This document shows, piece after piece, positions 44,081 to 57,972 of a stretch of DNA of 64,000 nt. The stretch's first letter is position 1; every line of letters begins with the position of its first letter. Where the stretch lies: positions 99,614 through 163,613 of the forward strand of contig JAYYUJ010000024.1 in NCBI GenBank assembly GCA_036344075.1, read 5' to 3'. Under the pieces are notes generated by a model, which was given only the letters and a program-made list of their open reading frames with translations, was not told where the DNA came from and did no database searches. The translations under genes and the position numbers were made by a program. The stretch is from Pseudomonadota bacterium. GTDB taxonomy: Bacteria > Pseudomonadota > Gammaproteobacteria > Pseudomonadales > UBA7434.

Positions 44081-44156
44081 GGGTCGTTAGCTCAGTTGGT
44101 AGAGCAGTTGGCTTTTAATCAATTGGTCGCTGGTTCGAACCCAGCACGACCCACCA
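44081..44156 (+). tRNA. tRNA-Lys (anticodon UUU)
   Basis: GGGTCGTTAGCTCAGTTGGTAGAGCAGTTGGCTTTTAATCAATTGGTCGCTGGTTCGAACCCAGCACGACCCACCA. The 7-bp acceptor stem GGGTCGT/ACGACCC, anticodon loop CTTTTAA, T-loop GGTTCGAA and encoded CCA are all present. Nearly identical to E. coli lysT. Confidence 0.97.
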
Positions 44157-44683
44157 ATTCCTTCATTTTCAGTCAATCTTCCCCTTTGATTGTTTCTTTG
44201 GCAATTCAAGTGTTTGGTGTGAACGTTCTTTTACGGTCAGATTCTAAAGAATCTATTGCTCTAACGATTTATTAGAATGCCTTTCAAATATAGATCAAAA
44301 ATTATACATCTCTAATGAGCAGTAACAACTAGCAAAAAATAATATGCGCGATCATTGTGTCAAAGCAGCTCGAATGATGATGTTTCTAATTAAAATTTTT
44401 GTGACGATATGTCTTTGAATTCGGTCTATGTAAACACTGGTATTAATCATCATGCACCAATATTTGCCGTTTATATTCCCACCATGGTATTTCCCCAACA
44501 GTGTTGCTGCTAATGATTAGCGATTTCTAATTTGAAATTGGACTACTAGTAGCCGTGGGTTTGAGCTATGTTTTTCACTACCTAACTAATGAGCAGGCGT
44601 AGCGTATTAAAAATTTTCTTTTTAGCGTCGCTGACATGCGGTATCATACATTAACTTAAATTCATTTCTTTGGAGATTTCTTA

Positions 44684-46804
44684 ATGGCATCAACAGAAAG
44701 CCAAGCTTCTGTGGGTAGTGAAGCTGCAAAGTCCGTCAATATTGGTTGGGTTTTGCGTGATATGATGCAGTCAACGGGTGTTTGGACCTTTGATCAGGCA
44801 GCATTAAGCCTGATGGTCAAACAAGCGCTGGCGGTGGGTTTCTCTAGTTTAGAAATTGGCGGTGGTCAGAGCTATCAAATTGCCTTAGAGCACGGTTTTA
44901 ATCCCTATCAAGTTATTCGAAATGCTAAGTGTGTTATTGATGCTGAGGGCGCTCGCTTGCCCCTGCAGATACTTATGCGTGGTGCAAATCAATTAGGCTT
45001 TCAACATTATGCTACCGATGTTCAGCAAAAAAGTATTGATTTGTTAGTGGATGCTGGCGGTGATAGCGAAAAAAATAATACCCTGATTATTCGCAACTTT
45101 GATGCTTTAAATGACGCTGAAAATCTTCGTTTCTCTATTTCATACATGGTGAAAAAAGATCAGCAGGCCGCTGCGGCTAATGCACTCGCGAACAGTAAAG
45201 GCCAACCGGCTTTAGCAAAGCGTGTGCATGTGCAAGCTGCCTTGTCCTATGTTCAGCCAGCGAATAACTCTAGCACAGCTTGCTACAGCAGCACTTACTA
45301 CGTCAATTATGCCAAAAAACTAATTGCTATCGCCGAGCAGGCCGGCGGCGGTTTGGACTCATTATGTATTAAAGACATGAGTGGCCAGCTGACACCCGCT
45401 TTGGCATTAGATTTAATCCCAGCACTTAAATCATTGGGCCTACCCGTTTATTTGCACTGTCATAGCACCGACGAAGCGCGTGCACTCGGTGTTCAGACGG
45501 TTGCGATTGAGGCTGGGATTAGTGGTATTGAAGTCGCTGTTGAGCCACTAGCAGGCGGCGCTTCGCATCACGATGTTGAAAATATCTGCTACTTAAAAGG
45601 CGTGATACCTACCAATGTCAAAGCGATTAAGGCCCTAAAAGCTAATCTTGCTGAGATTTTTGGTCCGCGTGCGCAGAGCCGACGAGACGCGGCCATTCCC
45701 TTGGTGACGTTAAAAAAATTGGTTAGCTTGGGAATTCCAGGCGGTGCTATTCCCTTTATTGTGAAAGACTTGCAGGCCAACGTCTGCGGTATGTTCGGGG
45801 TTGATCTCGACGAGGCACTGGTTTTATTTGAAGATGAATTACGCAGGATTCAAAGCCAATTAGGTTTTGTTCCTTTAGTGACACCCACCGCTGATATCAT
45901 TGCAAAGCAGACCATTAAAAGTTTGGGTAATCGTCAGCGTACGGCTGCTTATCAATTGGTTGATCCCAGATTCTGCCGTTTGGTACTCGGCCATTATGGC
46001 CAAGTGGTTAATCACGCAACAGATGAGCGGGTCGATGTGGCTGTTGAATTAATAGAAGAGGTTAAGCGGTATTGCGCCGCCATTGAGCAAGACGCCGACG
46101 GCTTTCGCAGCAAGGCAGGTCGTATTTTTCCCGAGCCCATTGTGCTGGCTGAACATCCTGCTTCGATTGCCATCGATCATGATGTTGCTGGGGTCGAAGA
46201 ATATGTCGGCGACTTATTCTCACGTTATCCACAATCCTGTGAAAATTTTGGTACGGTTCAAGAATGCTTGATGATGCATATTATGCGCCCAGCCGGTAAA
46301 ACGGATCGTTTATTGACAAAAAATATTTTACAGCCAACCGAAGAGCGCTTACGATTTATTCTTAATCAGACCTTGCATTTACTTCCGGGTAAGGACATAC
46401 CTGAATCGCGTCAGGCAGCCGCCGATGAGTTGACTGATGAGTTCTTGTTGGCAGCCTTGGGTGATTACGACGGTATTGTTAACAGCATTAAAGATTTAGT
46501 GCTTAACGGCGACAAAGAAAGTATTCGTCTGCGCATCAATCAACGAATGATTGAGGTCATAGATCCTATTTGTCAAACTAATGACGATGCACGCAAAAAT
46601 CGCTATTACATTGAAAGGCGTTTTGTCGGCCTTTTTGCAGGTGCTGTGTTTTGGGACTTACAGCGAATTTGTCGACGTACAGGGGCAGATTCACGCGCCT
46701 CGCTCGATGAGATGAGGGCCCGTAAGCTCGATCGTATTATCTCTACAACCCTCAAGCGTCGCCGTCGAGAAGGTGTGGGTCAGGCGCAAGATTTCCTCTC
46801 TTAA
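44684..46804 (+). CDS. PYC/OadA-type carboxyltransferase-domain protein with no biotinyl domain and a ~250-aa C-terminal region of unknown type
   Basis: By-eye alignment to the oxaloacetate decarboxylase alpha / pyruvate carboxylase CT domain: VLRDMMQS (RDAHQS), LEIGGG, LQILMRGANQLGFQHYATDV (LLRGQNLLGYRHY.DDV), IRNFDALND, CIKDMSG (carbamyl-Lys), LHCHST (HxH), and GFVPLVTPTADIIAKQ (PLVTPTSQIVG in the PYC_OADA domain). I found no AMKM/EAMKM biotin motif anywhere. Confidence 0.7.
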   Translation: MASTESQASVGSEAAKSVNIGWVLRDMMQSTGVWTFDQAALSLMVKQALAVGFSSLEIGGGQSYQIALEHGFNPYQVIRNAKCVIDAEGARLPLQILMRGANQLGFQHYATDVQQKSIDLLVDAGGDSEKNNTLIIRNFDALNDAENLRFSISYMVKKDQQAAAANALANSKGQPALAKRVHVQAALSYVQPANNSSTACYSSTYYVNYAKKLIAIAEQAGGGLDSLCIKDMSGQLTPALALDLIPALKSLGLPVYLHCHSTDEARALGVQTVAIEAGISGIEVAVEPLAGGASHHDVENICYLKGVIPTNVKAIKALKANLAEIFGPRAQSRRDAAIPLVTLKKLVSLGIPGGAIPFIVKDLQANVCGMFGVDLDEALVLFEDELRRIQSQLGFVPLVTPTADIIAKQTIKSLGNRQRTAAYQLVDPRFCRLVLGHYGQVVNHATDERVDVAVELIEEVKRYCAAIEQDADGFRSKAGRIFPEPIVLAEHPASIAIDHDVAGVEEYVGDLFSRYPQSCENFGTVQECLMMHIMRPAGKTDRLLTKNILQPTEERLRFILNQTLHLLPGKDIPESRQAAADELTDEFLLAALGDYDGIVNSIKDLVLNGDKESIRLRINQRMIEVIDPICQTNDDARKNRYYIERRFVGLFAGAVFWDLQRICRRTGADSRASLDEMRARKLDRIISTTLKRRRREGVGQAQDFLS

Positions 46805-46946: not shown

Positions 46947-49067
46947 ATGCAAACAAAAAAAACTTTTTGTTCTATTTGTTCTGCCTTTTGTGGATTTGAG
47001 GCTGAGGTAGAAGATAACCATATACTCTCTTTTCGTCCTGATACTAACCATCCGTTGAGTGAAGGCTTTAGCTGTACTAAAGGCCGGCAATTCCCCAATC
47101 TGTTAAAAACGAAAAATCGCTTGGTTAAGACGCTAAAACGGCAGGGCAAGGATTTCGTTCAACTAAAAAAAAGCGAAGCTTTAGATCAGATTTCCACGCG
47201 ATTAATGGCTATTAAAGACCAATATGGCCCTGAATCAATTGCTCTGTTTTCGGGTAACGGTGTGCAGTTTAAGGGGGCGACAGTCCCGGTGTTTCATGCG
47301 TGGCTGAATGCGCTTGGCTCGCACAATATGTTTAGCACAATGACAATTGATCAGCCGGCAAAAATCATTGCTACTGGTCGACACGGAGTGTGGGCGGGCG
47401 GCGTCCAGTCGTTTGAATCCTCGGACGTGGCAATATTGGTCGGCAACAATGTGGTCGTATCGAGTTTAAATCAGTTGAGCGGTCCACCGGGTTGGCGGCC
47501 TAAATCGATTAAGCAAGCGAAAAAGCGTGGTTTAAAACTCATAGTTATTGACCCGCGGTTGACCGAAACGGCACAACTTGCAGATCTTCATTTGGCGATT
47601 AGACCAGGGCAAGATGCCGTTTTATTAGCGGGCATGATTCGCCTGCTGATTCAGAAATCACTTTATGATCATGATTTTTGCCAGCAATACACTGATGACT
47701 TTGCCGCGCTTAAAGCGCAGGTTGAACCTTATGATCTTACCTTTGTGGCTCAGCAGTCAGGTGTTGAGGCAGCGCTAATTGAGCAAGCAGTTGATCTGTT
47801 TGGCGGCCAAAAACGTGGCTGTGTATCCAGTGGTACAGGGCCTGATATGGGGCCGCACCCTAATTTATCAGAACACTTGATCTGTGCCATGAATACCATA
47901 TGTGGTCGACATAATCGTGCTGGTGATAAGGTTAACACTTCTTTATTAACCCCAAATATGCCGCTGATGGAAGCGGTGATACCTTGGGATTGTCTTCCGC
48001 CAACACTTAATCTTCATACAAATAATCGACGATCTCGGATTGCTGACGCGAGGCAGGTGTATCAAGAGATGCCTAGCTCAACTTTAGCTGATGAAATTTT
48101 GACACCAGGTAAGGGGCAAATTAAAGCCTTAATCGTAATTGGCGGAAACCCCATGTTATCGTTACCAGACAAGGCCAAAATTAAAAAAGCCTTAAGTGCG
48201 CTTGACCTATTGATCTGTATTGACGTAAGGCGCACCGATACCACGGCATTGGCTGATTATATCTTGCCAGCCAGTTATGGCTTAGAACGGCCCGAAATCA
48301 CTAGCTATGCCGATTTTGTATTTGATAAACCTTTTCACCAGTTTGCCGAAAAACTCATCGAACCGCCTGGTGATGCGACTGAAGAGTGGATTTATCTTGC
48401 CGAGCTAGCTAAACGAATGGGCTTAGTGCTTGACTTGCCTGGAGGCCAAGTCGATAGTCAGCATTCGAATGAAGACTTTATTGGTCTGTTAGAGAAACTG
48501 TATCCTGCCGAGACAACTAAAGTGCCGATTGCCGAGATTGCGAGTCATCGTGGCGGCAAACTATATGAAGAATTTTCTAATGTGACTGTTATACCTGCTA
48601 TTGAAGGTATGGATGATAAATTTCAGCTAATGCCTGAGGGAGTGGCGCAGGAATTTGCGGTATTGGCGAAAACATTAGCGGATCAAGACAGTCGTGATGA
48701 TCGTTTTTTATTGATTTGCCGACGAAATAAATATGTTTACAATTCAATGTGTCATGAATTACCGAAGTCGGTCACCAGTAATCCTGTATACATGCATCCC
48801 GATGATATTCTCTCTGTCGGTGCAGAAGTGGGCGATAGGGTAGCGTTAGAATCTGATTTTGGAAAAATAATCGCTATGTTGTCTGCCGACGTGACCTTGC
48901 GGCGAGGCGTAGTTGCCAGTTCGCATAATTTTGGCGATGATAGCAATGGTCAAAATAATGAAAATTTTGCTTCGGTATCGGAATTGTTAAGTATGGAAAA
49001 CAGTAATGACAATTATGCCCGAATGCCGATAATGACAGCGGTACCTATTACGGTTGTTAGAGCTTAG
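46947..49067 (+). CDS. Cytoplasmic molybdopterin (Mo/W-bisPGD, MopB-superfamily) oxidoreductase with N-terminal [4Fe-4S] motif, FdhF-like architecture
   Basis: C8-x2-C11-x3-C15...C43-T-K-G cluster motif; colinear by eye with E. coli FdhF (715 aa). The C-terminal molybdopterin-binding barrel reads VYMHPDDILSVGAEVGDRVALESDFGKI. No Tat or Sec signal. Confidence 0.8.
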   Translation: MQTKKTFCSICSAFCGFEAEVEDNHILSFRPDTNHPLSEGFSCTKGRQFPNLLKTKNRLVKTLKRQGKDFVQLKKSEALDQISTRLMAIKDQYGPESIALFSGNGVQFKGATVPVFHAWLNALGSHNMFSTMTIDQPAKIIATGRHGVWAGGVQSFESSDVAILVGNNVVVSSLNQLSGPPGWRPKSIKQAKKRGLKLIVIDPRLTETAQLADLHLAIRPGQDAVLLAGMIRLLIQKSLYDHDFCQQYTDDFAALKAQVEPYDLTFVAQQSGVEAALIEQAVDLFGGQKRGCVSSGTGPDMGPHPNLSEHLICAMNTICGRHNRAGDKVNTSLLTPNMPLMEAVIPWDCLPPTLNLHTNNRRSRIADARQVYQEMPSSTLADEILTPGKGQIKALIVIGGNPMLSLPDKAKIKKALSALDLLICIDVRRTDTTALADYILPASYGLERPEITSYADFVFDKPFHQFAEKLIEPPGDATEEWIYLAELAKRMGLVLDLPGGQVDSQHSNEDFIGLLEKLYPAETTKVPIAEIASHRGGKLYEEFSNVTVIPAIEGMDDKFQLMPEGVAQEFAVLAKTLADQDSRDDRFLLICRRNKYVYNSMCHELPKSVTSNPVYMHPDDILSVGAEVGDRVALESDFGKIIAMLSADVTLRRGVVASSHNFGDDSNGQNNENFASVSELLSMENSNDNYARMPIMTAVPITVVRA

Positions 49068-49112
49068 ACGGCAAAAATAAAACTTCACTGACTGGGAATT
49101 GGAGACCGATCG

Positions 49113-49481
49113 ATGAGCGACAAAAGTCAAGCACAAATCCTTTTAGAACGCTATTGGGAAGAGGCCAGCAATCAAGGCAACTATGAGTTGGTACGTGAAT
49201 TGTGTGCCGATCCAATTATTCGTCATGATGTTGATGGTGGCGTGACAAAGTTAAGCCATGATGAACAAATTGCACGAGTAAAAATGGGCGTTGAAGATTT
49301 TGGTGTGCATATTGATCGTATCATTACCCATGCTGATGACACTTATGTGACATCTATTTGGGAGACTAAATCAGCTAAAGATGAAAATATGAATCTTTGC
49401 GGAATTGAAGTATTTAAAGTTGAAAATGGCCGTTTAGCCCATTGTTGGAATGCGCCTTACGGTAAAGGAAAGTGGGGATAA
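49113..49481 (+). CDS. SnoaL-like (NTF2-fold) small protein
   Basis: 122 aa; LLERYWEEASNQGNYELVRELCADPIIRHD...VENGRLAHCWN has the pattern of SnoaL/ester-cyclase-like proteins. GGAG lies 8 nt before the ATG, 45 nt after the Mo-enzyme stop. Confidence 0.55.
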   Translation: MSDKSQAQILLERYWEEASNQGNYELVRELCADPIIRHDVDGGVTKLSHDEQIARVKMGVEDFGVHIDRIITHADDTYVTSIWETKSAKDENMNLCGIEVFKVENGRLAHCWNAPYGKGKWG

Positions 49482-56862: not shown

Positions 56863-57972
56863 ATGACGGAATCTTCTTATCAAACTGCTGATATAGGTAA
56901 GTCGCAAGCACTGAAGCTTTGTAGCACAGTTGATGCGTACTCTGGTAGCGCGGAAGATATTGTTAAGCGTCACTTATACGAGCCTGCGCCTCAAGCTTAT
57001 ACAGAGACACAGTACCAGCGTGCCAGTGAAAAGATAAAAGCAATGCTTGAGCGAGAAAATGCCGCCATCATTGCTCATTACTATACCGACCCGCTAATTC
57101 AACGCTTGGCTGAAGAGACCGGTGGCGTGGTTTCTGACTCATTAGAGATGGCGCGATTTGGTGCTAATCATCCGGCCGATAATTTAATTGTCGCAGGGGT
57201 TAAATTTATGGGCGAGACAGCAAAAATTCTTAGCCCAGAGAAAAGAGTATTCATGCCAACCCTAGAGGCCACCTGCTCTCTCGATTTGGGTTGTCCAATT
57301 GAGCCGTTCTCAGCTTTCTGTGATGAGCATCCCGATCGAACGGTTGTGGTGTATGCTAATACTTCGGCAGCAGTAAAAGCGCGCGCCGATTGGGTTGTCA
57401 CTTCAAGCATCGCTTTAGAGGTGGTTGATTTTTTAGATGCAGAGGGCCAAAAGGTCATTTGGGCGCCGGATAAACATCTAGGTGCCTATGTGCAGAAACA
57501 CACAGGTGCCGACATATTGTTATGGGACAGCGCGTGCATTGTGCATGATGAATTTAAAGCGAAGGGTATTCAAGATTTAAAAGCTGTCTATCCTGAAGCT
57601 GCTGTGTTAGCGCATCCAGAATCGCCGGAGTCTGTATTGGCTCTAGCTGATAGTGTTGGTTCCACCACGCAAATTATTCGCGCTGCAGAAAAACTGCCGC
57701 ACGAGAAGTTTATTGTTGCGACTGATCAAGGCATCTTTTATAAATTATCACAATTAGTGCCAGATAAACAGTTCTTAATTGCCCCTACTGGTGGCGCTGG
57801 CGCAAGCTGTAAGAGTTGCGCGAACTGCCCTTGGATGGCAATGAATAATTTAGATAACTTAGCCAGTAGTCTAACACAAGAGGGTAACGAGATATTTGTT
57901 GACTTGCAATTGGCCCAGCAGGCGTTAACACCGTTGCAGCGGATGCTTGACTTTGTGAAGACACAAAATTAA
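56863..57972 (+). CDS. nadA: Quinolinate synthase
   Basis: [32 protein letters not shown] with Cys ligands in [14 protein letters not shown] and CANCPWM. Confidence 0.93.

Follow-up and report, generated by a model that had tools for sequence, protein, structure and literature searches.

A clade of carboxyltransferase homologues with a rebuilt biotin pocket: candidate biotin-independent 2-oxoacid enzymes in marine and saline bacteria

To our knowledge, every characterised carboxyltransferase (CT) domain of the lineage that includes pyruvate carboxylase (PC), the oxaloacetate decarboxylase alpha subunit OadA and transcarboxylase 5S transfers CO2 to or from biotin. In PC, the CT domain is joined by biotin carboxylase (BC), PT/BT and BCCP (biotin carboxyl carrier protein) domains, and the chain runs on into the PT/BT domain after the point equivalent to about residue 1001 of the Rhizobium etli enzyme (RePC). 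The OadA of OadABG systems has an association domain and a BCCP and is paired with OadB, and the OadA of E. faecalis is a CT without a BCCP in cis. The 5S protein of P. shermanii likewise has no biotin domain in cis; it partners the 1.3S carrier and 12S. Four types of oxaloacetate decarboxylase are distinguished in a review, none of which is a biotin-free CT derivative (PMC8100219). Here we describe a CT homologue of 706 amino acids, P0001, that differs from PC, OadA and 5S. Its gene lies at positions 44684 to 46804 of the forward strand in a 64,000-nucleotide stretch of DNA (the window; C24:99614-163613, from contig JAYYUJ010000024.1), which belongs to a 2.3-Mb, 97% complete gammaproteobacterial genome (G000).

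By its predicted fold, P0001 is a full PC/OadA/5S-type CT domain of the DRE-TIM superfamily with an additional helical end. An AlphaFold2 model with 42 family sequences as input had a mean predicted local distance difference test score (pLDDT) of 91.4 and a predicted template modelling score (pTM) of 0.88. In structural alignments made with VIA-align, model residues 13 to 551 matched the Vibrio cholerae OadA CT (VcOadA; Protein Data Bank [PDB] entry 2nx9) with a Z score of 38.4 and a root mean square deviation of 2.9 over 444 aligned residues, at 26% sequence identity. Pyruvate carboxylases matched with Z scores of about 37 to 38 (residues 536 to 1001 of RePC and 559 to 1027 of the S. aureus and human enzymes, SaPC and HsPC), and 5S (1rqb) with a Z score of 37.9. 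About 90 residues of insertions distinguish the domain from that of OadA, and residues 456 to 554 also belong to the CT domain, with insertions. The NCBIfam PycB, OadA and 5S models matched residues 23 to 455 with E values of 1e-46 to 1e-33, all far under their cut-offs; the best score was 158 bits against a cut-off of 402, and the OadA model gave 155 bits against 756. In the Pfam scan, PF02436 scored 18.9 bits, below its 27-bit cut-off, and PF00682 did not match. The parts of the gene discussed below are the following.

44684..46804, + strand: whole open reading frame (ORF), 706 amino acids plus stop, protein P0001 (ORF call and orthologues)
44723..46345, + strand: CT domain, TIM barrel and funnel subdomain, residues 14-554 (AlphaFold2 model and structural alignment)
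44753..44773, + strand: LRDMMQS, residues 24-30, with R25, D26 (metal ligand), Q29 and S30 (aligned to LRDAHQS of VcOadA and to R548/D549/Q552 of RePC)
44858..44878, + strand: GGGQSYQ, residues 59-65, with Q62 for the Ala of WGGATFD (A610 of HsPC, A49 of M. flagellatus PC [MfPC], A59 of 5S) and Q65 for D590 of RePC (counted on alignments)
45368..45388, + strand: IKDMSGQ, residues 229-235, with K230 and Q235 (K230 aligned to Lys178 of VcOadA)
45452..45469, + strand: LHCHST, residues 257-262, with metal ligands H258 and H260 (aligned to His207/His209 of VcOadA)
45878..45895, + strand: VTPTAD, residues 399-404, with T400 for RePC T882, A403 for S885 and D404 for K886 (motif alignment, RePC numbering on 2qf7)
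46346..46801, + strand: all-helical C-terminal domain of unmatched fold, residues 555-706, with the motifs ERRF and FWDLQRxCRRTG and a KRRRREG end (DSSP on the model)

Residue equivalences were counted on alignments of PDB sequences (phmmer; 2nx9, 2qf7 and 5ks8), and conservation was counted over 46 genomic sequences of the P0001 family, with eight biotin-type CTs as the canonical reference. The Asp/Lys/His-x-His metal site is present in P0001, D26 being equivalent to Asp17 of VcOadA, and all four ligands are found in 46/46 family members. The first-pass annotation had picked out these ligands in LRDMMQS, IKDMSG and LHCHST. The three motifs match those of VcOadA residue for residue and also align with their counterparts in PycB and 5S, and the ligands coincide with the metal site of OadA and PC. 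Lys178 of VcOadA is the carbamylated lysine (PMC2881705), and by homology K230 may be carbamylated as well; the equivalent lysine of PC and 5S carries this modification too. The pyruvate-binding residues R25, Q29 and R99 (R548, Q552 and R621 of RePC) are each invariant in the family, as is S30, the motif serine of RD..QS. The same is true of T400, whose RePC counterpart Thr882 has been described as "catalytically essential" (PMC5895798). With RePC numbered on 2qf7, the threonine of KVTPSSK is T882 and its last two residues are S885 and K886, and R621 and Y628 fall within LLRxxNxxGY. This numbering ruled out a placement of the catalytic threonine in a PGG(M/Q)x(T/S)N loop, at which P0001 has Pro357; because the T882 equivalent T400 is conserved, the idea that the threonine had been lost to proline was dropped. 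In all, P0001 has in common with VcOadA the fold, the Asp/carbamyl-Lys/His-x-His set, RD..QS, LLRG.N and the VTP threonine, and with the CT domains of R. etli, S. aureus and human PC and of the two-subunit M. flagellatus PycB (5ks8) the fold and the equivalents of R548, D549, Q552, R621, K718, H747, H749 and T882. Met28, which had drawn attention as a replacement of a near-invariant histidine in RDAHQS, carries no weight, because several biotin-bearing relatives have Phe or Trp at that position.

The residues that make room for biotin or bind it are, as judged from the alignments, replaced across the clade, at Q62, F106, A403 and D404. The position of HsPC A610, the alanine of WGGATFD, is occupied by Gln62 in all 46 family members and by Ala in all eight canonical CTs; the MfPC equivalent was aligned to Gln62 through 5ks8. 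The A49T variant of MfPC reproduces the human disease mutation A610T in the CT active site, and it disturbs biotin binding and abolishes activity (PMC5059739). The S885 position is Ala403 in 43/46 family members and Ser in 8/8 canonical CTs, the K886 position is Asp404 in 46/46 and Gln or Lys in 8/8, and the Y628 position is Phe106 throughout the family (46/46). Seven other residues (T31, Y209, E283, R333, G350, P357 and R429) are invariant in the family and found in 0/8 canonical CTs, and Q235 is family-specific (43/46). Compared with OadA, P0001 thus has Gln62 for Ala, Ala403 for Ser and Asp404 for Gln, besides the insertions and a helical end of 150 amino acids, and it lacks the association domain and BCCP. 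Compared with PC, it has Gln for A610 (HsPC) or A49 (MfPC), Ala for S885, Asp for K886, Phe for Y628 and Gln for D590, lacks the BC, PT/BT and BCCP domains, and falls in a separate clade. Indeed, in a quick maximum-likelihood tree, 22 family sequences were split from the eight biotin-type CTs by a branch with 100% support in the Shimodaira-Hasegawa-like approximate likelihood ratio test (SH-aLRT). The first-pass annotation had regarded a CT domain with neither a cis nor a neighbouring BCCP as unusual; the lack of a cis BCCP alone is not, since 5S is a precedent. However, 5S retains Ala59 and the serine and has its partner proteins, whereas P0001 has a rebuilt pocket and no linked carrier. The unusual trait of P0001, which that annotation missed, is on alignment evidence this clade-wide rebuilding of the biotin pocket.

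We give a probability of roughly 0.45 to the reading that P0001 is a soluble, stand-alone enzyme of an unnamed CT clade freed of biotin dependence, functioning as a biotin-independent, metal-dependent decarboxylase or lyase of oxaloacetate or another 2-oxoacid. A pyruvate- or oxaloacetate-type 2-oxoacid would bind on the metal, and a metal-stabilised pyruvate enolate would form without biotin when oxaloacetate, or a related 2-oxoacid of the beta-keto or 4-substituted kind, is decarboxylated. T400 would then donate a proton to the enolate, with D404 perhaps passing one on from solvent. Decarboxylation is the simplest reaction to propose because P0001 has no carboxyl carrier. The same chemistry, with a metal, a pyruvate enolate and a soluble protein, is known from FAH-type soluble oxaloacetate decarboxylase, the malic-enzyme-derived CitM and PA4872 of the phosphoenolpyruvate (PEP)-mutase/isocitrate-lyase type, the folds of which are unrelated to that of P0001.

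Several points weigh against a decarboxylase. The exclusion of biotin by Gln62 is argued by homology to the phenotype of the A610T/A49T mutants. The catalytic threonine, the known task of which is to pass protons to biotin and back, is retained in full. G000 already has PckA and a malic enzyme for the flux from C4 to C3 compounds and thus no evident need of a further oxaloacetate decarboxylase. Finally, within the genus the gene and that for PEP carboxylase (Ppc) exclude each other, as detailed below, which could reflect a carboxylating role instead.

The pyruvate enolate could also serve a different lyase, for example a pyruvate aldolase of the class-II type or an enzyme that cleaves a C-C bond in a 4-substituted 2-oxoacid, in which the rebuilt pocket (Q62, Q235, R333, R429 and D404) would bind a second, probably anionic, fragment instead of CO2. 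The DmpG-type 4-hydroxy-2-oxovalerate aldolases, DRE-TIM barrels with a helical communication domain that pair with an aldehyde dehydrogenase and have the same Asp/His/His metal site, are the next-best structural class, although the VIA-align match of the model to 1nvm (Z score of 26.6 over 320 amino acids) is well under those to CT domains. The newly invariant R333 and R429 and several family-specific polar residues would suit such a fragment. Nevertheless, P0001 keeps the carbamyl-Lys and Thr of the CT subgroup, both of which, as far as we know, are missing from DmpG-type aldolases, and no aldehyde-handling partner (dehydrogenase included) or pathway gene is conserved near the family loci. 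We consider this lyase unlikely.

A second alternative keeps biotin in the reaction and makes P0001 the CT part of a pyruvate carboxylase or transcarboxylase divided over separate proteins, with carboxybiotin supplied in trans by AccB or by the BCCP of a PCC alpha subunit. The genome search for accB-like genes suggested in the first-pass annotation turned up only two BCCPs in G000, neither of them linked to the P0001 gene: AccB, with accB beside accC, and a 964-amino-acid BC-BCCP protein, the alpha subunit of propionyl-CoA carboxylase (PCC). The latter, at G000:C46:11043-13934 (L103:5044-7938), is encoded between a normal PCC beta subunit and methylmalonyl-CoA mutase/MeaB. It is very divergent, with weak Pfam BC scores, and exceeds by some 300 residues the usual PCC alpha subunit of about 660 amino acids. 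The transcarboxylase-like parts of G000 amount to the crotonase-type CT of PCC beta and these BCCPs, and they are neither linked nor correlated with the P0001 gene. That 5S operates with a separate carrier and that the catalytic threonine is retained both speak for carboxybiotin in trans, as do the lack of Ppc, PC and isocitrate lyase in G000 and the failure of the gene and Ppc ever to occur together in the genus. The pocket argues the other way, with Gln62 where even Thr blocks biotin and Ala in place of the biotin-contacting Ser. In canonical CTs that have no BCCP in cis, neither the Ala nor the Ser of the biotin pocket has been lost, as seen in P0066, a CT-only protein without a biotin domain, and in 5S, of which the wild type has Ala59 according to the A59T entry 1s3h. 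The 964-amino-acid protein is carried in 20/21 genus genomes, among them those without the P0001 gene, which makes it an improbable partner. No BCCP gene lies near the P0001 gene, and none of the family loci has a linked gene for BC or BCCP. The first-pass annotation had described a CT homologue whose metal site is intact and which has no BCCP neighbour; that picture holds, and a carrier in trans appears improbable.

The third alternative concerns the PEP-pyruvate-oxaloacetate node, which looks minimal in G000. No Ppc (PF00311, PF14010), PC, OadB (PF03977), isocitrate lyase or second PYC_OADA-type gene was found in this 97% complete genome, which does encode PckA (at C43:77311-78705) and a single malic enzyme (on C18). 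Among the 21 genus genomes, the P0001 gene occurs without Ppc in 17 and Ppc without the P0001 gene in three (G006, G014 and G016), G003 has neither, and none has both. In a midpoint-rooted tree of two genes, AspS and PckA, the lineages without the gene branch at separate points within the carriers, with supports of 0.98 to 0.99, and the identity ranking of the P0001 gene agrees with that of AspS. Together, these results point to vertical descent of the gene and to three or more losses, of which two fell in lineages that have Ppc, and the swap between the gene and Ppc rests on at least two independent contrasts. A biotin-independent anaplerotic carboxylase on the PC CT scaffold, replacing Ppc in this genus of marine gammaproteobacteria by acting, for example, on PEP and bicarbonate, would account for this pattern. 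The former biotin pocket might then bind phosphate or bicarbonate, a role in keeping with the gain of the invariant arginines R333 and R429, and isocitrate lyase is missing from G017 as well as from G000. However, five carriers from other genera were tested, among them two strains labelled Glaciecola with 58%-identical copies of P0001, and every one of them has Ppc, which rules out mutual exclusion as a general rule. Within the genus the contrasts are few, G003 has neither gene, and G006 is only 78% complete. An enzyme that drained C4 compounds to C3 in lineages with no need of Ppc would fit the pattern equally well, and we know of no PEP-using enzyme in the CT fold. We regard an anaplerotic carboxylase as quite doubtful. 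Overall, the Ppc pattern is compatible both with an enzyme that overlaps with Ppc in function and with flux demands at the node that run in opposite directions.

The gene is under strong purifying selection in both of its domains. Compared with three close orthologues, the ratio of nonsynonymous to synonymous substitution rates (dN/dS) was 0.02 to 0.13 over the whole ORF, 0.08 to 0.13 in the CT domain and 0.02 to 0.04 in the helical tail; because it is low in both domains, the gene is taken to be functional. A non-catalytic role, as a pseudoenzyme or regulator in which only the CT fold is preserved, might be argued from the functionally unassigned helical domain with its Arg-rich end and from the lack of pathway context, but it is highly improbable given catalytic and metal residues invariant across phyla and the dN/dS of the CT domain.

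The C-terminal tail matches no known fold or Pfam family, and the first-pass annotation had recognised nothing in it, but it is shorter than the approximately 250 amino acids given there: because the structural alignment takes the CT fold to about residue 554, only some 150 amino acids (residues 555 to 706) are left unexplained. These form helices only in the predicted model, and the tail modelled alone had a pLDDT of 85. Among 48,161 chains, the best VIA-align match was to a PNPase helical domain (Z score of 6.4 over 74 amino acids), within the noise expected of helical bundles. Foldseek gave nothing at an E value of 0.001 or below (best E value, 0.6 or above), phmmer against 1.8 billion representatives returned the protein's own family only, and an ESM Atlas feature match of 0.76 was merely to a cluster of its own kind. 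A hidden biotinyl domain is ruled out, since Pfam found no Biotin_lipoyl domain in P0001 at an E value of 1 or below and the all-helical model is incompatible with one. The (A/E)MKM motif in a biotinyl-domain context is also absent from P0001 and from the tails of the close family, so the absence of a biotin domain noted in the first-pass annotation is borne out. Nearly all family members have a helical tail, which is unalignable across subfamilies and is not conserved in the distant ones. The tail begins at about residue 555, which corresponds to about residue 1001 of RePC, the point at which PCs go on into PT/BT. Because the tail varies between subfamilies and the active-site signature does not, the domain most likely has a role in assembly or capping rather than in catalysis.

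The family comprises about 60 protein clusters and 73 genomic loci with the P0001 architecture, and the P0001 clade is a rare, previously unnamed one of mainly marine and saline bacteria. A close group, the orthologues of P0001 at 53 to 97% identity, consists of metagenome-assembled genomes (MAGs) of Cellvibrionales/Pseudomonadales and the two strains labelled Glaciecola. More distant groups, with 28 to 35% identity and lengths of 605 to 964 amino acids, include marine Verrucomicrobiales (Rubritalea, Oceaniferula and Akkermansiaceae), Thiomargarita, Thiohalocapsa, an alphaproteobacterial MAG, flavobacterial MAGs and others. Cultured carriers include Rubritalea marina DSM 17716, Oceaniferula spumae NT6N and 'Glaciecola' sp. 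XM2/SC05. A scan of nine family members found a biotin domain in none of them, and no fused longer forms of the family were found, which is weak evidence. Shorter matches were contig-end fragments or one broken copy. In this connection, P0074, P0080 and P0083 are three fragments of a close homologue (79 to 95% identity) on one 87,159-bp ENA contig, which suggests a frameshifted or broken gene copy in that assembly. Databases name family members "hypothetical protein" or "oxaloacetate decarboxylase alpha subunit". The latter label is wrong for the family, and true OadA and OadB pairs are present separately in some relatives that carry the P0001 gene. In one relative, the oadB of a genuine OadAB pump (G008:C1:153100-154336) is broken by a single in-frame TGA, which may mark a pseudogene or a sequencing error.

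No neighbouring gene is conserved over 46 family loci from several phyla. In the window, the P0001 gene is preceded by tolQRA-tolB-pal-cpoB and then a tRNA-Lys(UUU) gene at 44081-44156, and the start codon has one ribosome-binding candidate.

44672..44675, + strand: Shine-Dalgarno-like GGAG, 8 nucleotides ahead of the ATG at 44684 (read off the sequence)

Scans of the 5' leader for riboswitches and other RNAs found no known RNA besides the tRNA-Lys, and promoter and terminator scans around the gene gave scores not above those of shuffled sequence. Directly downstream, at 46947-49481, lie genes for an FdhF-like molybdopterin oxidoreductase (706 amino acids; 225 bits against a cut-off of 666) and a 122-amino-acid protein, and the 142 bp between the P0001 gene and the oxidoreductase gene have no terminator-like site. 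Not every lineage of the genus has this pair behind the P0001 gene: it is present in the G000 clade, G019 and G012 and absent from others with the same tol-pal and gap flanks. It was ruled out as a conserved operon partner. The stretch from the tRNA-Lys gene to nadA (56863-57972) varies in gene content among close relatives.

If P0001 is the biotin-independent enzyme proposed here, the CT scaffold would have been re-used for biotin-free chemistry, with the catalytic machinery kept and the biotin pocket filled. The PEP-pyruvate-oxaloacetate node would then gain a fifth kind of oxaloacetate decarboxylase or else a previously unknown lyase or carboxylase. Under the OadA label, the family leads metabolic reconstructions astray in marine Cellvibrionales, Verrucomicrobia and related groups. 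For the genus itself, the exclusion of the gene from Ppc-bearing genomes provides a concrete hypothesis that is open to complementation.

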